In this document: positions 3,093-39,660 of the stretch, in pieces
How the letters are laid out: the number at the start of each line of letters is the position of its first letter
Numbering within the stretch: the stretch's first letter is position 1
IMG/VR virus record: IMGVR_UViG_2595698964_000001
Span: 79,987-143,986 of that record
Source of the DNA: a virus
Taxonomy: Duplodnaviria > Caudoviricetes
DNA: 64,000 bases
Strand: one strand, 5' to 3'
Notes under the pieces: model-generated
Seen by the model: only the letters and a program-made list of their open reading frames with translations
Told to the model about the DNA's origin: nothing
Database searches by the model: none
Position numbers and translations under genes: made by a program

Positions 3093-3620
3093 ATGGCGGT
3101 AAAAACTAGAGCGCACCGGGTTAGCCGGGCGTTAGACTTTTATAAGAAAAACACGATTTATTTCTCAATTGGAAGAACAACTCCTTGGGAGGATGAAAAC
3201 AACCCTCCTCGTACTGAAGACACAACTCCGTTAGAGGAGATGATTGGGATGAGAAAAGCGGACAGAGTTCTGCTTGTAACTCCTTATGATGGAAGTGACG
3301 TCCCTGAAGGCACAGAGATCATCGAGTTTGTAGAAAACTCTTTTTGGAAAGTCGTACCTGAGCAAGACGCACTCAAAGAGTACGCGAGATATGTTTACAT
3401 CGAGACAACTATTAATCCGTCTGACCTACCATTAGGCGCTTACAGACAGGTAGGCGTACATTCAGGAGTAGTTCGTAAAGAAGGTGTCAGCGCTGGAAAG
3501 TTCAACTTACTCCCGGACGAAATCGAAGACACAGGTATGCTCGAGTTGATTGACAATAGGGAGAAGAACCTCAGAGGCGAGAGTACAAGGTTGCTATTGA
3601 ACTTTATTATTAAATTTTAG
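3093..3620 (+). CDS. Baseplate structural protein
   Basis: RBS GGAGG before ATG 3093; IGRTTPWEDENNPP and YRQVG motifs seen in Herelleviridae baseplate proteins. Confidence 0.75.
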   Translation: MAVKTRAHRVSRALDFYKKNTIYFSIGRTTPWEDENNPPRTEDTTPLEEMIGMRKADRVLLVTPYDGSDVPEGTEIIEFVENSFWKVVPEQDALKEYARYVYIETTINPSDLPLGAYRQVGVHSGVVRKEGVSAGKFNLLPDEIEDTGMLELIDNREKNLRGESTRLLLNFIIKF

Positions 3621-27449: not shown

Positions 27450-27659
27450 ATGGCTTGGAAAAACGAAACAACAATATACTTAATTATGTGGAAGAGTTCA
27501 GTGACGGGTGCGACTCTTTCCGACATCAAGAAGTCTAAGGCGGGGAAAGATAGATTCATAGAAATGCTTGAATTTATAGGTGTTGACATGAATACTGTTA
27601 AAGTTGTAGAACAAGAAAAACCGTATAAGTACGTGCCGAAGAAGGAGAGAGCAAAATGA
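27450..27659 (+). CDS. Hypothetical protein
   Basis: RBS GGAGG; ATGA overlap with the next gene. Confidence 0.65.
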   Translation: MAWKNETTIYLIMWKSSVTGATLSDIKKSKAGKDRFIEMLEFIGVDMNTVKVVEQEKPYKYVPKKERAK

Positions 27660-28042
27660 ATAGACAACAGATGGAGAAAATTATAATGACGCTCTCTCAA
27701 GGTCAAGCAAAGTACGGGTTACACGCGTTAGCTAGCGCTATTGCGGGAGAGTACGGTGTTTCAACTAATGTTATACTCGATATATACAACGAGTATGTAG
27801 GACAACCGAAAGTCGACCAAAGTCGACTTGAGGACGAAAACCCAATGTCACGATTTGCTAAGGCTGTTGTAGAAGAAATCAGAAATAACGAAACCAGAAT
27901 GCTAGCGTTGGAGCAAGAGAATGCTATACTTCGTAGGGAAGTTAATTTTTATCTTGAAGAGACGCGGCGCTTAAGAAAGATGGTGGATGACCGTGACAAT
28001 CTTATCCGAGAACGAATTTTCCGCGAGAGTTCAAGTCTCTGA
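27656..28042 (+). CDS. Hypothetical protein with coiled coil
   Basis: RBS AAGGAG; LEQENAILRREV heptads. Confidence 0.65.
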   Translation: MNRQQMEKIIMTLSQGQAKYGLHALASAIAGEYGVSTNVILDIYNEYVGQPKVDQSRLEDENPMSRFAKAVVEEIRNNETRMLALEQENAILRREVNFYLEETRRLRKMVDDRDNLIRERIFRESSSL

Positions 28043-29661: not shown

Positions 29662-32355
29662 TTGATGGCTTTTAATGCGATTGAGGCAGAAAACTGTTGG
29701 GACGCTTACATGAAAACGTTGAAGTTGTTGCTAGACAACAACTTTGACGCTAGAAATGTGTTTTTGCAGATCAACAACACTGAGGACAACTACGTAACCT
29801 TTATGCCGCACGATACCGACCCCTTGTTTTGGTATCTGCGTGTGAACTCAGACACTATTGAAGGCGAACTTGGAATAGGTGTCGGTCTTGACGTTCGTTA
29901 TGACGCAAGACGGATGTCAAGAGTAAAAGGTCATGGAACAGCTGATTGGTCGTATCGCGGGGAAACTGGAAGAGCTCCGGAAGACCCTACGTTTTTGAAT
30001 GTTCTTATGGAAGAGGATGAAATCTTTCCAAACGCGAGTTATCAAGCAAACACACGAGTTGGAGGAAGAGGACAACTACATGCTGTTAAAGACTTGCTAA
30101 TGATGGACAAAGGTAGCGATAAAGGTATTGTAACTTTTTGGCATTACCAACGCGACCTCCTAGAGTATACTAGACGTAAGTATTTAAGTAAAAAGATTAT
30201 GGGAGACAAGAAGTGGAGTGATTCTCAGCATCAGCGGATTCCTTGTCCTACAACTTGGCATTTCTCTTATACGCCGGACGGGGTAACGAATAACGTGTAT
30301 AGTCGCTCTTTGATTTGGGATGGACATATTTATGATGACATGTTTCGATTCCCTGAGCCAGCTAAATGGATTGGAGGACACCTTAAAAAATCGTCTTCTG
30401 TTGCTACGTTTACAATTAGACGTCTTTGGCAGAAAAACTTTGGTAACGCTAAAGAACGTTGGAGAAGTCATTATGATTACTGGTCAAATCATAAATGGAT
30501 CAAAGACTATTTTGAACCAAGACAATTTGAGATATTCAAGAGCGCTGATGAGTTTGAGCTCGAATGGATGACAAAAGAGCTTGCGGAGCAAGATTACCGC
30601 CTAGGAGCTTTTGAAGATGGTGATCGGAAGCTTAAGAAACTTCAATCTCAGTATTACCGTGAATGGGTCAAAGCTATGAAGGTTGCGGATATGACAATTG
30701 CTCATAGGGTTCTTGGTCAGATGTTACAAAAAGGTATTGTTTCACGACCTACAAAACGAGCACTTGATTATGTAGACGCTTATACGTTAAAGCAAGCGAT
30801 ACTTGACATTGATGGGATTTTCCGAGTACAATGCGTACAGTGGGTTGTAAACTACATGTTACGAAGTGGAGACCCGTCTATGAACTATAAAGAGATTCTT
30901 GAAATCTTACCTGAGGAACTTCAAGAGCTCGTTCTTGTAGCCTCTTTGGGGAAAGTTAACAAGGTAGAAAAAGAGGGGATACTTTCCAAGATAAGTCCTG
31001 AAGTCTTAGCTATCTCTGACTATAACGATCTTGTTATCTCAACTAAACCTGTAACGACAACAATCAATCCTACACCGTCTTCAATACCAATACGTGTAGA
31101 TACTTCTGAGGAAGAGAGAGAAGAACCCGAGGACATAGAAGAGGTTGAGGAAGTTGAGGACAAAGCTTCTTCAGAAGAAGACGTCTCAAAATCAATATCT
31201 AAGATTATTGCATCAAACTATTCTGCTTTTACTGGCATGCTTAATAGCGAGGATGGTGTTAATAACTCCGACGACGAAGATGACGACGAAGACGACTTTG
31301 ATGTTACAGACGACGTTGATCCTGAACAATCTCTCGAAGATATGGTAAACTCTGTTGTAAATAATGGTACAGATTTAGACTTTGAGGATGAAGATGAAGA
31401 GGTTGAAACGGAAAGTAAACAACCTTCTAAACAGAGTGACGAGACTAACGTTGAGAGCGGCGAAGTTCTTCCTGTCGAGGGTATGTCTTTTGCGGAACTT
31501 TTAAAACTACAACTAGAAAACGAAAAAGAGGGGAAACCTACTGATGATGTTCCTACAACAGAAGAACCCGAAGTTGTTGAAGAGGAGGATGAAGACGTGC
31601 GTAAGCCGATTGTAGTCGATGGAGATAAACCAAACGTGTTCATCGCAGCTCCTTATGGAGGTTCAAGAGTTGACAAAACGCTTGGAGATCAGATCAATAA
31701 GGCTGCGGAGAATATAGACTATGTTTATTTCCCATTAGAGCCGTTCCATTATCGCGAGGTAAAAAGACATGGTACACAACTCGCTGTTGATGCTTGCGTG
31801 TCTAACGACATCCCTATGATAATGGAGACTCGCAAAGTAGTACCTGAATGGGCCATAGAGGCTTTAGCTAAACATAAGGATAGTGAACTCAGAGTACATC
31901 TAAACACTATGGATGATAATAAGTGGAAAACATTATACCCTAACAAAAAAGCAGACTCTCCGACAGCATTAATCAAGTCGTTCATTGACAGCTTTCAAGG
32001 AGTTGTGCACACTGTACTAAAAATATCCCCTATTGTGCCGGGGATCATAACCAAGAAGGATGTTCTTGACGTTATTGAGAAAATTCGAAATTGGACACCA
32101 ACGGTTCAGATTGGGTTTGCCTCCTTTACGGAAGACGAGTACGAAGCTTTGGATGGACTACTCGGAGACAAGGTTGACAAAGTCAAAAAATACTATTACA
32201 AAAAAGAAGGTAAATGGTTCGTTTCCGACGAATACAGAGAAGAGTTCCTTGGTTTTGTAAAAGAATTTTTGACTGGTTCGAAAATAAAACTTGAGGTGAT
32301 GACGGAAGCAGTCTTTGACGGCGAGGATGTCTCAACTATAAAAATAGAGGATTGA
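29662..32355 (+). CDS. Divergent thymidylate-synthase/dUMP-hydroxymethylase paralog fused via an acidic linker to a degenerate radical-SAM-like domain
   Basis: GQL..V..LL..DK.S.K.IVTFW, RIPC(195), VYSRS(216); C-terminal PYGG..., EPF..RE....TQ..V......IP....T, NTMD, SP, ISPIVPG pattern without CxxxCxxC. Confidence 0.7.
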   Translation: MMAFNAIEAENCWDAYMKTLKLLLDNNFDARNVFLQINNTEDNYVTFMPHDTDPLFWYLRVNSDTIEGELGIGVGLDVRYDARRMSRVKGHGTADWSYRGETGRAPEDPTFLNVLMEEDEIFPNASYQANTRVGGRGQLHAVKDLLMMDKGSDKGIVTFWHYQRDLLEYTRRKYLSKKIMGDKKWSDSQHQRIPCPTTWHFSYTPDGVTNNVYSRSLIWDGHIYDDMFRFPEPAKWIGGHLKKSSSVATFTIRRLWQKNFGNAKERWRSHYDYWSNHKWIKDYFEPRQFEIFKSADEFELEWMTKELAEQDYRLGAFEDGDRKLKKLQSQYYREWVKAMKVADMTIAHRVLGQMLQKGIVSRPTKRALDYVDAYTLKQAILDIDGIFRVQCVQWVVNYMLRSGDPSMNYKEILEILPEELQELVLVASLGKVNKVEKEGILSKISPEVLAISDYNDLVISTKPVTTTINPTPSSIPIRVDTSEEEREEPEDIEEVEEVEDKASSEEDVSKSISKIIASNYSAFTGMLNSEDGVNNSDDEDDDEDDFDVTDDVDPEQSLEDMVNSVVNNGTDLDFEDEDEEVETESKQPSKQSDETNVESGEVLPVEGMSFAELLKLQLENEKEGKPTDDVPTTEEPEVVEEEDEDVRKPIVVDGDKPNVFIAAPYGGSRVDKTLGDQINKAAENIDYVYFPLEPFHYREVKRHGTQLAVDACVSNDIPMIMETRKVVPEWAIEALAKHKDSELRVHLNTMDDNKWKTLYPNKKADSPTALIKSFIDSFQGVVHTVLKISPIVPGIITKKDVLDVIEKIRNWTPTVQIGFASFTEDEYEALDGLLGDKVDKVKKYYYKKEGKWFVSDEYREEFLGFVKEFLTGSKIKLEVMTEAVFDGEDVSTIKIED

Positions 32356-32395: not shown

Positions 32396-34309
32396 ATGAA
32401 GACAAAAGAAGAATTTCATAGAATTGAAATATCAAAGTTTACCGAAGACCTTAGAGAAGCTTTTGGTTACAAGATACAATATAGACAAGACCTTGTTCTT
32501 GTTAACATAAGAGGTTGTAATGGTGCTGGTAAATCTACTGTACCAATGCAAATGCTACAGACTGATCCTGGCGCGTTTATGTTGACACTAGATGGGAAAG
32601 ATAAGGCAACAGTATTTCCGTCTTATGGTTTTGTGGCTATGGGGAGGTACTTTAGTAAAACAGGAGGTCTTGATGGTTTTAAAAATAACGAAGAAACTCT
32701 TAAGGTACTTAAATTGTTATGGGAGTTGCCTTTTTCGATTATTATGGAGGGTGTAATCTCTTCCACGATATTCTCAACTTACTGCGATCTGTTTAAGGAG
32801 CTCGAACAAAGAAATAATCCAAAACGGGCGGTCGGTGTGTTGAACTTACTTCCCCCTTTCGAAGTCTGTCTAGAACGGATAAAAAAGAGAACGCCTGAAA
32901 AGTTTGATTCCATCAAGAAAGACCAGATAGAAGGTAAATGGCGAACAGTTAACAGGAACGCTCAAAAGTTTAGAGACGCCGGAGTAACTAGTTGGGATGA
33001 GGATAACTCTGTAATAGACATTAATGATACTGTTAGCTGGTTTTTCAGTTCGATTAAAAACAATTTACAGCCTGAATTTACGGGTTTAAGGTTAGGGGTT
33101 AGATTTCCTACAGAGGAACCTGTAAAAGCTCTTAAAAAGGCTGAGAAAGGGGTTAAAAGAGGTAAGAAAGGGAGGAAAACTAGTCCCGTAGCTAAAACCT
33201 TAGATGACAACGGAGATGGGGCGTTTCTTCGCTCGTTAAAACGCGAGATAAGACCTCACTGGGATCCCAAATATTTAAACACTCCAGACGACAACGTTAG
33301 ACTAAGACGAGACCCTGAGACAGGTCAAACTTTATGGGACATGTATTTTATAAACTTAGTCGAGAGACAGAACATATGGTACAGACGGGTTATACAAGGA
33401 AAGTCAAAACCTTGGACTGATGACCCTGTTATGTCAACGTACCACTTTACCAATGTTGACAGACGTCTTGACAGAGTGACCTTACATTACATCGACAAAG
33501 TTCTTTGTAATCTAGAGGACTCATATGAATCTAAGAAGTTTTTATTGTTAAACACTTTTATCTACAGGTTGTTCGTACGTCCTGAAACGACAGACGCTAT
33601 GGGTTATATCTTCCCCGAGACTTTTGAAGAAGATTGGGAAAGAGCTAAGGCAGCATTGAGAGCTCGTCGCGAGTCAGGAGAACCTGTGTTTACCGACGCG
33701 TATTTTGTAAATGACCTGAAATCAGCCAATCCAGATAGAGCTAACAGCAGTAACAAGACAGAGAATGCGATTCACTTGATTCAATTTATAATTGATCATC
33801 TTGACGAATTAGCTGAGTTCACGTTTAATCCTAAAAACAGCATGGAAGAAGTAATCGAGAAGTTTACGATGATACCAGCAGTAGGTAACTTTAATGCATA
33901 CGAGGTTGCGCTGGACTTAGGTATTGTAAAAGAGATGACAGGAATTGACTTTGTAGACTGGACGCCAGATCACTACGCAAACGTTGGCCCAGGTTGTAAG
34001 AAAGGTATCGAATATGTATTCGAAGACTTAGGTAATATGTCTCATTTAGACATCGTTTTCTTTATAACCAGTGTGTACAAAGGAGAATTAGAACGACTAG
34101 GACTTGAGTACAAATACCAAGAAGGTTGTAAGGAGCTCGATCTGAGGGCGCTTGAAGGTTGGTGTTGCGAGATGTCAAAATATTTCAATTACTACGCAAC
34201 AGAGCGAGGATACGACTGGGCAAAAGGGAAACGTCCTAAAAAGAAAATGAACCTGAGGACAGATGATGTAAGCTACCTTAATCCAAGAATAAGTAACCTT
34301 GTAAAATAA
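32396..34309 (+). CDS. P-loop kinase fused to 5-hydroxymethyl-dU DNA kinase (aGPT-Pplase1 family)
   Basis: N-terminal VNIRGCNGAGKST and IMEG; C-terminal ERQNIW.RR.....PWTDDPV...YHFTNVDR.LDR.T, GNFNAYE, VGPG..KG, EGWCCEMSKY. Confidence 0.88.
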   Translation: MKTKEEFHRIEISKFTEDLREAFGYKIQYRQDLVLVNIRGCNGAGKSTVPMQMLQTDPGAFMLTLDGKDKATVFPSYGFVAMGRYFSKTGGLDGFKNNEETLKVLKLLWELPFSIIMEGVISSTIFSTYCDLFKELEQRNNPKRAVGVLNLLPPFEVCLERIKKRTPEKFDSIKKDQIEGKWRTVNRNAQKFRDAGVTSWDEDNSVIDINDTVSWFFSSIKNNLQPEFTGLRLGVRFPTEEPVKALKKAEKGVKRGKKGRKTSPVAKTLDDNGDGAFLRSLKREIRPHWDPKYLNTPDDNVRLRRDPETGQTLWDMYFINLVERQNIWYRRVIQGKSKPWTDDPVMSTYHFTNVDRRLDRVTLHYIDKVLCNLEDSYESKKFLLLNTFIYRLFVRPETTDAMGYIFPETFEEDWERAKAALRARRESGEPVFTDAYFVNDLKSANPDRANSSNKTENAIHLIQFIIDHLDELAEFTFNPKNSMEEVIEKFTMIPAVGNFNAYEVALDLGIVKEMTGIDFVDWTPDHYANVGPGCKKGIEYVFEDLGNMSHLDIVFFITSVYKGELERLGLEYKYQEGCKELDLRALEGWCCEMSKYFNYYATERGYDWAKGKRPKKKMNLRTDDVSYLNPRISNLVK

Positions 34310-34706: not shown

Positions 34707-34780
34707 AATAACATCCCCTTCCTTGATTTTCCTGTACCATAATAACTGTCTTTTTACATTCAATGATGTTTTACATAAAA

Positions 34781-34811
34781 GGCGTAAACTTTGATTTTTA
34801 TTCTTTTATTG
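34781..34811 (+). promoter_or_regulatory. Phage middle-type promoter
   Basis: GGCGT-aaactttg-N10/11-TTTATT. Confidence 0.7.
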
Positions 34812-34840
34812 TTATGACTTACGAAAAGGAGGAAACTAAT

Positions 34841-35989
34841 TTGTATACTTTTTCTGGTAACAATCCGGCGCAGATTTACCTTGACGCCTTATACAAAATA
34901 CAAGAGGAAGGTGACAACGTATCACCTCGGGGGATGGAAGTAAAAGAAATTAGACCAGCGTCTATTGAGTATACTAACCCTCTTAACCGAGTTGTTTTTC
35001 TTGAAGGGAGAAAGATGAACCCATTTTTCTTAGGGATGGAGTCTCTCTGGATAGCTTGCGGGCGTTCTGACGTGGAGTTTCTTACAAAGTATAATAAAGG
35101 TATGGCAGCCTTTTCTGATGATGGTGAGTTCTTTAATGCTCCTTACGGACAAAGACTCCGCGCATGGAACACTAATTCTGTTAGCGGGTTTATCTTTAAC
35201 CCTATTGACCAGCTTATTGACGTGTATGAGAAGCTTAAAAAAGACAAGGACTCTAGACAGGCAGTGGCTTCGATTTATAACCCATTGTTTGACAACGTAA
35301 CCGTTGAAACGTTAGATCGTCCTTGTAACCTACAGCTAGTGTTTAAGATACGAAATGACAAACTTACATTAACGGTTTACAACCGAAGCAATGATATACA
35401 CTACGGAGTGTTCACTAATCTAGTACAGTTCTCTGTTTTACAAGAGCTAATGGCAGTTTGGTTGGGTGTAGGTGTTGGCGAGTATCATCAAGTTACTGAT
35501 TCACTTCATAACTATCTAAACGACTTTGGCGCGAAGGAAACAGAAAAAATATTCAACGCCTATCCGGAACATACGACCGTCCAAGAGTTTACTTTTGAGA
35601 ATGAACCTCGAATGTCAACGAGTTTTGAAGAGTTCGAAGCTATGCGATCTGTATTATTTGGTGGTTGGTTCTTTAAAGACTTACATCACGATGAAGCGTT
35701 TAAACAACCTAGAGTAAGAGAAAGCTTACTTACGGTAATTAAGTCTTTACCCGATGACTATTGGAGAAACATGTTATATGCTGCGTATGCTTATCGCGCC
35801 CATAAACTTGAAATCCCGGAAGAAGTTATTGTTGGGCTTGACAATATGGCTGATAGCTCTTGGAAAATGTCTTGTATTCATTTTCTTTATGAGAAGTACA
35901 AAGACAACTCTTTATTCCGGGAGTTATACGCTGATTGGTCTGAAGATAAAGTAAGATTCATCGAAGGTAAAAAACAAAGAAAATACTAA
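34841..35989 (+). CDS. dUMP hydroxymethylase (SPO1 gp29-like, thymidylate synthase family)
   Basis: VSPRG, FSDDG, YG.RLR, DQL, DSRQAV, RPCN, YNRSND, specificity Asn (VFTN), SLHNY; RBS AGGAGG with TTG 34841. Confidence 0.9.
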   Translation: MYTFSGNNPAQIYLDALYKIQEEGDNVSPRGMEVKEIRPASIEYTNPLNRVVFLEGRKMNPFFLGMESLWIACGRSDVEFLTKYNKGMAAFSDDGEFFNAPYGQRLRAWNTNSVSGFIFNPIDQLIDVYEKLKKDKDSRQAVASIYNPLFDNVTVETLDRPCNLQLVFKIRNDKLTLTVYNRSNDIHYGVFTNLVQFSVLQELMAVWLGVGVGEYHQVTDSLHNYLNDFGAKETEKIFNAYPEHTTVQEFTFENEPRMSTSFEEFEAMRSVLFGGWFFKDLHHDEAFKQPRVRESLLTVIKSLPDDYWRNMLYAAYAYRAHKLEIPEEVIVGLDNMADSSWKMSCIHFLYEKYKDNSLFRELYADWSEDKVRFIEGKKQRKY

Positions 35990-36871: not shown

Positions 36872-36884
36872 ATATTTTTTAATT

Positions 36885-36916
36885 GGAGCATGGTATTGTA
36901 CCATGCTCTTCTTTTT
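36885..36916 (+). terminator. Intrinsic terminator
   Basis: GGAGCATGGTA-TTG-TACCATGCTCT plus T run. Confidence 0.8.
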
Positions 36917-36946
36917 GGAGTAAACTTTGTAAAATTCTCTTTATTT
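36917..36946 (+). promoter_or_regulatory. Phage middle-type promoter
   Basis: GGAGT-aaactttg-N10-TTTATTT. Confidence 0.75.
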
Positions 36947-36975
36947 GTTGTAGTTACGACAAAGGAGGAGAAGCT

Positions 36976-39660
36976 TTGGAAACAGAAATTATGGAGCCAC
37001 TAATGGGACGCGGAAAGAAAACGGCTAAAATTATGTTTGTTACAGATACAGCGTCTGAACACGATTATTACGAAACAGGAAAGTATATGACTGATCAACC
37101 GGGGAAACTTCTGTTGTACTCGCTTAAAAAGTTAGGGATAGACTTGAAAACGGATTGCTACTTTACAGCTCTTGTAAAGCAACCGACTCCGGAAAATAGA
37201 CAACCTAATAGAGAAGAAGTTGACGCGTATGTAGGCATATTCGAGAAAGAGGTTGAGATTGTAAATCCTGACATTATTGTTCCTATGGGTAATGTGTCTC
37301 TCAAGAAGGTCGGAGGTAAAACGGGTATTACGAAGTTTAGAGGAAAAGCAACAGTTGATGAGGAGACCGGAAGAATCATCTTTCCAATAATTGGTCCCGA
37401 TATGCTATTTCTCCAGCCTAAGCATACTAAGAAATGGACGAAAGATTTACAGAACCTTAAAGAGCTTCTAGATAAGGGAAAGAACTTCCTAGAAAGAAAA
37501 GAGGTAACTTATAGATATTTAGAAGACTTACCTTCTGTTCTTAAAGAGATTAAGAGAATGAAGAAGTCAAAATGGGTTGTATTTGACTTGGAGACAACAG
37601 GACTAGACCCATTTAAATCTGATTCTAAGATAGTTTGTATCTCGTTAACTGACAGAGACCATTACGGTGTGACTATCCCGTTAGACCATAAAGAGTTTGT
37701 CTGGGAGGAAGAAGACTTCGAGAAAGTCAAAATGGCTATTAAGCTACTTCTTGAAGATAAGAAAATAAAGAAGATGGCCCATAACGGGAAGTTCGATATG
37801 AAGTGGTTGAAAGTTCAATATGGTATCGAAGTAGCTAACTTTGCATTTGATCCTCTTCTGTGTCACTACCTTACGGTTTCTGAGGAACAGGGTGGTCATG
37901 GTCTTAAGAACCTCGCTTGGGAGTTTACTGACATGGGCGGTTACGATAATGAACTTGATGCCTTCAAGGACACACTACCAGAGAAAATCCGACATAACTA
38001 CGACAATGTACCTTGGAAAATACTCAGAACATACGCCGCAGCCGACGTTGACTGTACATTTCGATTATACAAGATATTTAAAGAGTACCTTAAGCAAGAT
38101 GAGGGCTGGAGGTATGTGTTTAAGAACCTTCTTCTACCGGGCTCGTACGCTTTGTCTGACATAGAAATAAACGGCGCGAAACTTGACGAGGACAGAATAG
38201 CGTTATACGAGGAAGTTTTCCCAGCGCGCACTGCTGAAATTGAAGAAAAGTTAAGACAGTACCCTGAAGTATTAGAGATCGAACGCGAGAAGCAGAGATT
38301 GTTCGAACTTAGACAGCTAGAAATGAAGAAGCCGAAGGAAGAGCGAAACGAGGAAATACTTAAGTACAATAAATATAAGAACTTCAAGTTTAAGTTTAGC
38401 TCAACCAATCAACTACGAGAACTTCTTTTTGAAAAACTAGGGTTAGACACGCCTTTCCTTACGAAAAAGGGAGAGGAAAGAAAAAGACTTGTAGAGAAAA
38501 GAAATAGAGGGAAAAAGAAGTCAGAACAAGAGAAATTTGTACCAACAATTGAAGAGCTCTCTACCGGGAAAGAGACTCTTGCATATCTAGATGGTAAACA
38601 TCCTATTGCCTCCCTCTTGTCTGAATGGAGACGTATTGAGAAAGTTTATGGAACTTATATTAAACCTGCGAGAAGCTGGATTGGAGCAGATGGTCTTGCC
38701 CACCCTACGTATAACCTTACGGGAACGGTAACAGGACGTTTGTCTTCAGAAAACCCAAACGCGCAGAATTTCCCGCGTAAGTCAAATGATCCTAGAGCAT
38801 TTGAATACGTTTACGGAATAAAAAAGATGTTCGTTAGTCGATTTGGAGCAGACGGACTAATATTACAAGCTGACTACTCTCAGCTGGAATTACGTATCGC
38901 AGCAATTTTCTCTAACGACAAGGAGCTTATGAATGCGTACAAAGCTGGAAAAGACATCCATATTTACGTTGCTTCAAAGGTTCATAAGATACCTGAGTCA
39001 GAAGTAACAAAAGACCAACGTACTGCTGCAAAAGCCGTAGGATTTGGACTCTTGTACGGTAAAGGTGCGTATTCTTTGGCTCAAGATATGAAGGTTGATC
39101 TTGAAGAAGCGCAAGAGTTCATTGATACTTACTTCAAGGAGTTTGCAGGAGTTAAGAAATGGCTCGATAACACGAGAAAACAAGTGTTCAAAAATAAGCG
39201 TGTTAAGACGCTTACAGGACGTTGGAGACGTCTCGCAGCTATTGACTCAACTAACCGAGCAACAGCGGCTGACGCAGAACGTCAAGCTGTAAACTCACCT
39301 ATCCAAGGTAGCGGCTCTGATATTACTCTTTCATCTCTAATTGCGTTAGGTCGTCGTTTGAGAGAAGAAGGGTTTAGATCAGTAATTTGTATGACAGTTC
39401 ACGATAGTATTGTACTCGATGTTCATAAAGATGAACTTACTGGGGTTTACAAATTAGTTAAGGAAGTAATGGAGAACCCTCCGTTTGACTGGGTAACTGT
39501 ACCTATCGTGGCCGATGTGGAAATTGGGCGTAACTACGGAGACTTGGTTGACTTGAAACAATTAAGTGACCTTGATGACTATAAAGATGTGTATGAGTAC
39601 ATCGATGTTAAGTTTGAGGAGAAAAAGAAAGAAGATTTAGAAAAGGCAACGAAGAACTGA
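36976..39660 (+). CDS. Family A DNA polymerase with N-terminal UDG-like domain and 3'-5' exonuclease
   Basis: FDLETTG, HNGKFD, YAAAD, TGRLSS, DYSQLELR, R.AAK..GFG..YG, VHDS; RBS AAAGGAGG with TTG 36976; no intron. Confidence 0.95.
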   Translation: METEIMEPLMGRGKKTAKIMFVTDTASEHDYYETGKYMTDQPGKLLLYSLKKLGIDLKTDCYFTALVKQPTPENRQPNREEVDAYVGIFEKEVEIVNPDIIVPMGNVSLKKVGGKTGITKFRGKATVDEETGRIIFPIIGPDMLFLQPKHTKKWTKDLQNLKELLDKGKNFLERKEVTYRYLEDLPSVLKEIKRMKKSKWVVFDLETTGLDPFKSDSKIVCISLTDRDHYGVTIPLDHKEFVWEEEDFEKVKMAIKLLLEDKKIKKMAHNGKFDMKWLKVQYGIEVANFAFDPLLCHYLTVSEEQGGHGLKNLAWEFTDMGGYDNELDAFKDTLPEKIRHNYDNVPWKILRTYAAADVDCTFRLYKIFKEYLKQDEGWRYVFKNLLLPGSYALSDIEINGAKLDEDRIALYEEVFPARTAEIEEKLRQYPEVLEIEREKQRLFELRQLEMKKPKEERNEEILKYNKYKNFKFKFSSTNQLRELLFEKLGLDTPFLTKKGEERKRLVEKRNRGKKKSEQEKFVPTIEELSTGKETLAYLDGKHPIASLLSEWRRIEKVYGTYIKPARSWIGADGLAHPTYNLTGTVTGRLSSENPNAQNFPRKSNDPRAFEYVYGIKKMFVSRFGADGLILQADYSQLELRIAAIFSNDKELMNAYKAGKDIHIYVASKVHKIPESEVTKDQRTAAKAVGFGLLYGKGAYSLAQDMKVDLEEAQEFIDTYFKEFAGVKKWLDNTRKQVFKNKRVKTLTGRWRRLAAIDSTNRATAADAERQAVNSPIQGSGSDITLSSLIALGRRLREEGFRSVICMTVHDSIVLDVHKDELTGVYKLVKEVMENPPFDWVTVPIVADVEIGRNYGDLVDLKQLSDLDDYKDVYEYIDVKFEEKKKEDLEKATKN

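Follow-up and report, generated by a model that had tools for sequence, protein, structure and literature searches.

The 897-aa protein encoded by the gene at 29662-32355 has an N-terminal domain with a predicted thymidylate synthase (TS) fold. By analogy, we regard this domain as a strong candidate to stand in for the amino acid:DNA transferase (AADT) of phages M6, ViI, PhiW-14, and PaMx11, for which no Pfam match was found in the genome concerned. Positions refer to the window, the 64,000-nt stretch of DNA analysed here, which corresponds to bases 79987-143986 of a virus record of 143,986 bp. Within the TS superfamily, the TS-like domain appears to have diverged far from the other members of the hydroxymethylase branch and to have moved from nucleotide metabolism into the modification of DNA after replication. 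The pathway is already known; what would be new is the type of enzyme, a TS-fold protein acting on DNA in place of AADT.

The alpha-glutamylthymine of phage SP10 is among the first DNA hypermodifications described, and the kinase of the pathway has been characterised; SP10 gp186 was demonstrated to phosphorylate 5-hydroxymethyl-deoxyuridine (5-hmdU) DNA (Lee 2021). From the adjacency to the kinase gene, we infer that the open reading frame (ORF) 29662-32355 is SP10 gp185 or a near-identical equivalent. Table 3 of Lee 2018 gives SP10 gp185 as 'Radical SAM' and gp186, which has the next Gene ID, as the kinase (N-terminal) plus 'aG/PT-PPlase1' (C-terminal); the entry there for the SP10 aG/PT-PPlase2 is 'N/d'. 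In the accessible literature, which includes the 2018, 2021, and 2024 papers and only a minority of the subscription journals, we found no mention of a TS-like domain in the gp185 gene and no enzyme named as the SP10 glutamate transferase or as thymine-forming. In the public phage collection, Bacillus phages Goe26 and SBSphiC come closest; they are 87% identical at the nucleotide level across the gene, which is labelled 'hypothetical protein' or left unannotated in them. By inspection of the ribosome-binding site, the true start is probably the ATG at 29665, 8-9 nt downstream of GGGAG.

Thymidylate synthase-like domain

Direct comparisons gave no significant match. The ORF has no PF00303 match in Pfam at E<=1, and the sole PF00303 match of the whole genome is the canonical dUMP hydroxymethylase encoded at 34763-35989, whose product is 49% identical to SPO1 gp29/DUHM. 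Pairwise BLASTP between the two proteins was not significant (the best segment, the PC...VYxRS stretch, had an E of 0.35), and phmmer and hmmsearch against PDB sequences gave nothing significant, with three TS chains at E 1.2-1.4.

The two proteins were connected by profiles. The homolog set comprised 13 close relatives with at least 51% identity, and an HMMER search of 1.84 billion representatives returned 14 proteins at E<=1e-3, including diverged members with 20-37% identity. The alignment of the TS-like family (A2) contains 23 sequences, and that of the dUMP hydroxymethylases (A4) contains 20. Sub-threshold PF00303 matches were observed in two of ten distant homologs (2.2e-4 and 2.4e-3), and one distant homolog matched a TS PHROG at 1.4e-7. 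By hhalign, A2 matched the single hydroxymethylase at E 5.5e-4; against A4, the probability was 97.6% and the E 4e-12 over 213 columns (aa 2-263 against residues 25-258 of the hydroxymethylase).

The TS fold proposed in a first-pass annotation of this DNA, made from the letters alone, is also predicted by structure. The AlphaFold2 (AF2) model of the domain, built on A2, had a pLDDT of 84.8 and a pTM of 0.87, and Foldseek matched it to at least 396 PDB chains at E<=1e-3; among the matches listed, ranks 1-49 were all TS-family members, with the CMP hydroxymethylase MilA first. VIA-align against MilA gave a Z of 27.3 and an rmsd of 3.0 A for 300/318 residues (model residues 7-412), and a Z of about 18 against ordinary thymidylate synthases. 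The resemblance to TS is real, well past chance. Among PDB sequences, MilA is also what the hydroxymethylase of the phage matches best (4.7e-25), and both proteins are therefore assigned to the hydroxymethylase branch of the superfamily.

The first-pass annotation had placed the ORF and the codon of Cys195 correctly (Table 1) and had aligned the N-terminal ~420 aa with the hydroxymethylase by eye. This alignment was recovered by profile for aa 2-263 and, as a fold, up to about residue 412 on MilA, but similarity in sequence past about residue 263 was not significant. Within the recovered part, hhalign reproduced the pairings of GQL..DKGSDKGIVTFW with DQL..DKDSRQAVASIY, of RIPC with DRPC, and of VYSRS with VYNRS. 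The later pairings (EPR...DEFE and KKL...YYR) did not hold up; hhalign of aa 264-450 with the hydroxymethylase extension gave a probability of 3.8%, and EPR is not conserved in close homologs.

In A2, which extends down to about 20% identity, Asp64, Gly75, Asp95, Trp96, Asp165, Arg192, Cys195, Arg215, and Asp226 are invariant (23/23), and the conservation of Cys195 expected in the first pass was thus observed. Arg215 and Ser216 form the RS motif in the hhalign mapping, and the position of Arg215 is, as we take it, that of R166 in E. coli TS. In the E. coli enzyme, four arginines clamp the 5'-phosphate, the Asp of the RSxD motif belongs to folate pterin binding, and the HxY motif clamps the 3'-OH. 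The same mapping shows that Arg215 is the only one kept of the four phosphate-binding arginines; the Pro-Arg-Gly (PRG) arginine loop is deleted, and the Arg-Gln that follows 'DKDS' in the hydroxymethylase, which corresponds to Arg-Arg in E. coli TS, is replaced by Asp153-Lys154. Three differences that had been claimed by eye were reproduced by hhalign. The RSxD Asp is Ile218, which is variable among homologs; Asp226, 11 residues past Arg215, occupies the position of Asn219 in the dUMP enzyme and of an Asp in MilA; and RRL--WQK is aligned with SLHNYL, so that HxY loses its His to a gap and has Trp256 in place of its Tyr. This pattern suggests an enzyme that may still attack pyrimidine C6 and would no longer grip a free 5'-monophosphate, a free 3'-OH, or methylene-tetrahydrofolate. 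A gain of basic residues, also claimed in the first pass, was found in modest form: by composition, the core has a net charge of 0 (pI 7.3) against -9 for the hydroxymethylase core, with 21 Arg against 11, and the domain is neutral rather than basic.

Table 1. Positions of the features discussed (window coordinates, unless a contig is named)
Feature	Position	Strand	Basis or remark
TS-like/barrel gene	29662..32355	+	ORF, 897 aa
TS-fold catalytic core, aa 1-~290	29662..30531	+	hhalign, AF2, Foldseek, VIA-align
Cys195, catalytic-Cys position of TS, Pro-Cys motif	30244..30246	+	aligned with hydroxymethylase Cys188; 23/23
Arg215, position of the TS RS-motif Arg	30304..30306	+	aligned with invariant Arg208 of the hydroxymethylase family; 23/23
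Asp226, base-specificity position	30337..30339	+	hhalign mapping; 23/23
Helical extension of TS-like domain, aa ~291-450	30532..31011	+	helices in AF2 model
Acidic low-complexity linker, aa 451-645	31012..31596	+	67 Asp+Glu, 11 Lys+Arg, net charge -56
Cluster-less radical-SAM-type barrel, aa 646-897, M6 gp53 homolog	31597..32352	+	AF2, Foldseek, hhalign, PHROG
PYGG-SRVDK, site of missing CxxxCxxC loop	31651..31677	+	PYGG-YCTVGCAFCY in M6 gp53
5-hmdU DNA kinase plus helical domain (gp186 equivalent)	32396..34309	+	HMUDK_HMUD1 2.8e-23, HMUDK_hel 2.4e-44 (Pfam)
HMUDK_hel domain of the kinase	33326-34306		AADT homolog with E-x-x-x-C
Canonical dUMP hydroxymethylase, source of 5-hmdU	34763..35989	+	PF00303 2.7e-23
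L018 cassette (IMG/VR contig): radical-SAM, TS-like, Ploopntkinase3	6047-9904 of L018		intact CTFGCQYCF in radical-SAM protein; overlapping starts
LysYB1 AADT-like plus barrel fusion	7023-8942 of L010		639 aa; directly upstream of split kinase

Barrel domain, kinase linkage, and exchange of the N-terminal domain

The C-terminal domain is related to an enzyme that acts on DNA. The AF2 model of the barrel (pLDDT 82.4) matched the radical S-adenosylmethionine (SAM) proteins SuiB (1.7e-7) and spore photoproduct lyase (6e-5) in Foldseek, and also viperin and PFL-AE. The barrel matched PHROG 9252 'DNA repair photolyase' at 1.5e-10 and, by hhalign over some 200 residues, M6 gp53 (probability 97.65%, E 2.6e-12). 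In the PDB, hmmsearch with the barrel alignment returned only an irrelevant designed protein. M6 gp53 is reported to be a radical-SAM N-alpha-glycinylthymine isomerase that acts on DNA (Lee 2021). Relative to gp53, about 23 residues including CxxxCxxC are deleted, after which the alignment resumes. The whole protein has only four Cys (12, 195, 391, and 712), the Cys triad was found in none of the 13 family members, and Cys712 is the sole invariant Cys of the barrel domain. Since the CxxxCxxC stretch is deleted, the barrel is, to judge from its sequence, a relic of a gp53-type radical-SAM enzyme in which no 4Fe-4S/SAM radical chemistry would be possible. We predict that it is most likely a binding partner for DNA or the modified base. 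As the fused barrel lacks the Cys triad, the 'Radical SAM' label of 2018 is correct for ancestry and incorrect for chemistry.

The acidic linker between the two domains is absent or very short in the TS-like homologs of 716-724 aa and is reduced in P0006; similar linkers occur in the AADT-barrel fusions P0131-P0133. With its 195 residues, it may be a DNA mimic or an autoinhibitory tether.

The adjacency to a 5-hmdU DNA kinase gene, to which the first-pass annotation had drawn attention, was confirmed, the kinase gene 32396-34309 being the next gene directly downstream. The same annotation had expected homologs to be absent from plain 5-hydroxymethyluracil (hmU) phages. By tblastn, the TS-like domain was found in 4 of 50,697 phage records, all from Bacillus phages (SBSphiC, Goe26, Nachito, and YungSlug) and all four with the kinase, and no SPO1-type hmU phage was among the matches. 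The kinase, by contrast, was found in 418 phage records. All of the homolog-bearing records examined (11/11; the own genome, Goe26, SBSphiC, Nachito, YungSlug, four IMG/VR contigs, L011, and L018, with L019 outside the count) encode a P-loop DNA or nucleotide kinase, which is adjacent in most of them. The kinase is of the HMUDK_HMUD1 type in ten and of the Ploopntkinase3 type in one (L018).

The distant records show other arrangements of the same elements. In L011, genes for HMUDK_HMUD1 (4.2e-16) and a TS-family protein (4.8e-19) come after that of a stand-alone homolog of 477 aa. This homolog is 44% identical to the query A7 of the distant group, whose members share about 20-24% identity with the SP10 domain. 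In L018, a stand-alone TS-like gene lies, in a translationally coupled cassette, between an intact radical-SAM gene and the kinase gene (Table 1), and the radical-SAM protein is weakly similar to gp53 (BLASTP 0.002) and to the barrel (hhalign 4.6e-4). The fragment upstream in L011 was not significantly similar to this protein (E 0.16). Neither a canonical TS nor an AADT is present in the 41-kb fragment of L018, and the cassette may represent a different hypermodification pathway. A fragment of an N6/N4 DNA methylase lies just upstream of it. The cassette of L018 (intact radical-SAM, TS-like, kinase) parallels that of M6 (AADT, PLP, radical-SAM gp53, kinase). In P0019 (855 aa), the TS-like domain follows a P-loop NTPase/kinase-like region of roughly 270 aa (GAGCSGKS; AAA_18 0.011), with a charged C-terminal tail in place of the barrel, and the protein may be a kinase/TS-like fusion; we call this region only 'P-loop kinase-like' because its comparison with the SP10 kinase was not significant. 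P0019, P0025, and P0021, searched singly, had no match in viral contigs, and the A8 group had none in genome contigs and viral contigs.

The first pass had also counted on there being no canonical AADT elsewhere in the genome, and a six-frame search of the whole 143,986 bp with PF18724 (ADDT) gave nothing at E<=1. This was true of all seven TS-like-bearing records searched, four of them complete (the own genome, Goe26, YungSlug, the complete contig G001, and the fragments G002, G005, and G006), and M6 as the positive control matched at 2.3e-48. The 897-aa protein itself has no PF18724 match. PF18746 (aGPT-Pplase3) also had no match in the own genome, yet its control likewise gave none, so that this negative carries no information.

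The place of AADT relative to the barrel is seen in the Lysinibacillus phages LysYB1/2, which have an SP10-type kinase (62% identity) and no TS-like gene. In LysYB1, the kinase and the helical domain are encoded by separate genes, and a fusion protein is encoded at the syntenic position. The cluster-less barrel recurs at the C-terminus of this protein (44% identity, E 1e-63), and the N-terminus matches ADDT at 8.8e-5, below the Pfam cut-off. The two parts are joined by an acidic/Pro-rich linker, and the architecture is annotated as 'hypothetical protein'. A search with the barrel returned four further AADT-like/barrel proteins (P0131-P0134) with weak ADDT matches (4e-4 to 6e-3). P0134 contains the E-x-x-x-C motif and has a match at 4.7e-13 to the PHROG to which the characterised M6 gp51 belongs, and its DIDPVYPVL and SETMACKYH correspond to DLDPIYTAL and VETVLCKWK of M6 gp51. 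From these sequences, TS-like and AADT-like domains appear to be alternative, unrelated N-termini on the same barrel. The neighbourhood was seen to place an AADT-like/barrel fusion upstream of the same kinase only in LysYB1.

Several observations concern the kinase gene and its surroundings. The kinase 32396-34309 matches PHROG 800, labelled 'terminase small subunit', at 8.2e-267, and some Pseudomonas phage records put this label on a kinase homolog, which is likely a propagated misannotation. The IMG/VR contig G004, which lies behind L005, has two closely spaced HMUDK_HMUD1 genes (1729-2214 and 3145-3606) downstream of the TS-like/barrel gene. In YungSlug (L006, 12512-13042), the gene of a Tad2-like (Thoeris anti-defence) protein separates the split kinase gene from that of the helical domain. 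In the window, the 925-aa ORF at 36883-39660 encodes a family-A DNA polymerase with a 3'-5' exonuclease and an N-terminal domain of the uracil-DNA glycosylase (UDG) superfamily (UDG 1.7e-14), and the 128-aa ORF at 27656-28042, among early/replication genes, has a partial Cellulase (GH5) Pfam match (6e-6) over profile positions 97-167 only.

Proposed reaction and alternative explanations

The AADT slot is taken by a TS-fold domain that keeps the residues for attack at C6, and from the chemistry of AADTs and of TS-family hydroxymethylases we therefore propose a Cys195-dependent conversion of 5-phosphomethyl-dU (5-PmdU) in DNA to N-alpha-glutamylthymidine. With moderate confidence, we favour the TS-like domain as a DNA-level enzyme that attacks C6 of 5-PmdU, expels phosphate, and lets glutamate add. 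The kinase encoded next door would make 5-PmdU in the phage DNA, and the base would be flipped into the TS-like pocket. Cys195, held by Arg215, would add to C6; phosphate would then leave to give an exocyclic C5-methylene, as handled by all TS-family enzymes. The alpha-amine of glutamate would add to the methylene, and elimination of Cys195 would give N-alpha-glutamylthymidine. In TS-family hydroxymethylases, water is the nucleophile in the interconversion of a C5 methylene and C5-CH2-OH. With O-phosphate instead of OH as the leaving group and an amine instead of water, this chemistry would become the SP10 reaction.

A similar course has been put forward for AADT. The Cys and a nearby Glu of AADT are essential, and borohydride or mercaptoethanol traps a methylene intermediate (Lee 2021). 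The paper on the structure of PaMx11 gp46 proposes attack of Cys247 at C6, protonation at O4, loss of phosphate, and addition of the amine to a flipped-out base. For SP10, a TS-like cysteine mechanism was proposed in 1981 (Witmer 1981, as cited in Lee 2021). The polymer-level enzyme suggested in the first pass is thus partly supported: the fold, the conserved and lost residues, the context, and the domain swap belong to what was observed, while DNA as the substrate, the flipping of the base, the leaving group, and the choice of glutamate or hydride go beyond these observations. Those of its own counter-tests that could be run in silico all came out in favour of its reading.

Other points weigh against a DNA-level glutamate transfer by this domain. 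The accessible text of Lee 2021 gives kinase activity for gp186 and nothing on gp185. A canonical hydroxymethylase is absent from the L018 and L019 fragments, and the kinase of L018 belongs to the other P-loop family. All five sister fusions score below the Pfam cut-off for AADT; hhalign of their alignment against M6 gp51 alone was not significant (E 0.16), BLASTP of the LysYB1 protein (P0130) against M6 gp51 was not significant either, and the LysYB1 subgroup has no Glu at -4 from the Cys. The TS-like domain is merely neutral, not basic. Asp226 is a cytosine-type residue, as in MilA, and a poor fit to uracil O4; as a speculation, it may serve as a general acid at O4, like the Glu of AADT.

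A further such point is the helical domain of the kinase, HMUDK_hel. E-x-x-x-C is invariant in the four HMUDK_hel sequences (SP10, M6 gp54, YungSlug, and LysYB1) aligned with two AADTs; since the AADT dyad is kept, the genome would have a second candidate catalyst for the same step. HMUDK_hel may itself be an enzyme, for example with a 5-PmdU-to-thymine activity common to these phages, or one that transfers an amino acid. It is probably not the transferase, because it coexists in M6 with a separately required AADT; this favours another role, without being proof for SP10.

The fate of the methylene intermediate can also be drawn differently. In a polymer-level TS, the methylene of 5-PmdU would take a hydride to give plain thymine, alone or in competition with glutamate, and the helical domain of the kinase would transfer the amino acid. 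All phages with 5-HMUDK turn their remaining 5-hmdU into thymine, a step to which the accessible text of Lee 2021 assigns no enzyme, and M6 gp51 with borohydride yields thymidine from the same intermediate (Lee 2021). Hydride transfer is the final step of TS chemistry, and the dyad of HMUDK_hel would fit this division of labour. However, M6, ViI, and PhiW-14 make thymine without a TS-like homolog, the tblastn matches being limited to the four Bacillus phage records. The folate Asp is lost, and the domain takes the place of AADT in the fusion architecture. Membership in the hydroxymethylase branch (Z 27.3 for MilA against about 18 for TS) also points to a nucleophile, not a hydride, as what attacks the methylene. 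We consider this explanation unlikely, although it is, next to a catalytic role of HMUDK_hel, the chief alternative. It is rather doubtful, too, that a single methylene intermediate on 5-PmdU is split by sequence context between glutamate addition and reduction, giving both the glutamylthymine and the thymine of SP10 DNA, as the model of Witmer in 1981 foresaw; such a polymer-level 'thymidylate synthase' would be the first TS-fold enzyme to work on DNA instead of the free nucleotide.

The domain could instead be a non-catalytic reader that recognises hmU, 5-PmdU, or glutamylthymine and positions the complex while the helical domain of gp186 does the chemistry. In favour of this, the barrel fused to it is a pseudo-enzyme already, the domain has lost many canonical TS residues, and HMUDK_hel holds a catalytic dyad. 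Against this, Cys195, Arg215, Arg192, and three Asp are invariant over about 80% divergence, which is unusual for a pure binding module, and the coexistence of HMUDK_hel with AADT in M6 applies here as well. This explanation seems improbable to us.

All the characterised TS-family members that we know of act on mononucleotides, and from this precedent the domain could be a second pool-level pyrimidine C5 enzyme (for dCMP or 5-hmdUMP, for example) that is linked to the kinase by shared regulation only. Asp226 matches the CMP/dCMP-specific enzymes, and the top structural match is MilA. We regard this as quite improbable, however, in view of the loss of three of the four 5'-phosphate arginines, the HxY 3'-OH clamp, and the folate Asp, the fusion to a homolog of a DNA-acting radical-SAM enzyme, the interchange with a DNA transferase domain, and the kinase that never fails to accompany it (11/11). 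An enzyme modifying C5 of cytosine or 5-hydroxymethylcytosine in DNA would suit the invariant Asp at the specificity position and the L018/L019 fragments, which show no dUMP hydroxymethylase, but it is very improbable, given that SP10 DNA is reported with modified thymine only, that the partner kinase is reported to act on 5-hmdU, that no folate site remains for a one-carbon donor, and that a gene of the dUMP hydroxymethylase type is kept alongside in L011, YungSlug, and SP10 alike.

The Cys195-dependent glutamate transfer that we favour is directly testable because an assay with 5-hmdU DNA, gp186, and liquid chromatography-mass spectrometry exists (Lee 2021).

Relation to known systems

If our reading is true, a new enzyme that puts amino acids onto DNA would fill the missing glutamate-attaching step of SP10. 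The finding would also be a clean non-homologous replacement, a TS fold for the glycosylase-like AADT, within a conserved fusion and operon. The TS scaffold, which to our knowledge was previously found to act on mononucleotides only, would then extend to DNA.

The hydroxymethylases SPO1 gp29/DUHM and MilA share with the TS-like domain the fold, the Pro-Cys nucleophile, the Arg of the RS motif, and the helical C-terminal extension, and the chemistry expected of the domain passes through the same C5 exocyclic methylene. Unlike them, the protein has no PF00303 match and lacks the Arg of the PRG loop, the partner-subunit Arg pair, the RSxD Asp, and HxY; it carries an Asp as MilA does, yet within a uracil pathway. 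Also unlike them, it continues into an acidic linker and a radical-SAM-type barrel, and its genetic tie is to a DNA kinase, not to nucleotide-pool genes.

M6 gp53 and the barrel have in common the radical-SAM-type barrel fold and the motifs PYGG, (E/D)PF, and PxVPGI(V/I)T. The CxxxCxxC stretch is intact in gp53, which is free-standing, whereas the barrel described here is fused and has a deletion of roughly 23 residues. The AADTs (aGPT-Pplase clade 2: M6 gp51, ViI gp247, PhiW-14 gp109, and PaMx11 gp46) correspond to the TS-like domain in their position, both in the pathway and in the gene cluster, and as an interchangeable N-terminal partner of the same barrel; the proposed mechanism, with a Cys at C6, loss of phosphate, and addition of an amine, is also the same. 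They differ in having an unrelated sequence and an unrelated fold, reported to be helix-hairpin-helix glycosylase-like, and the TS-like domain would thus be analogous, not homologous, to them.

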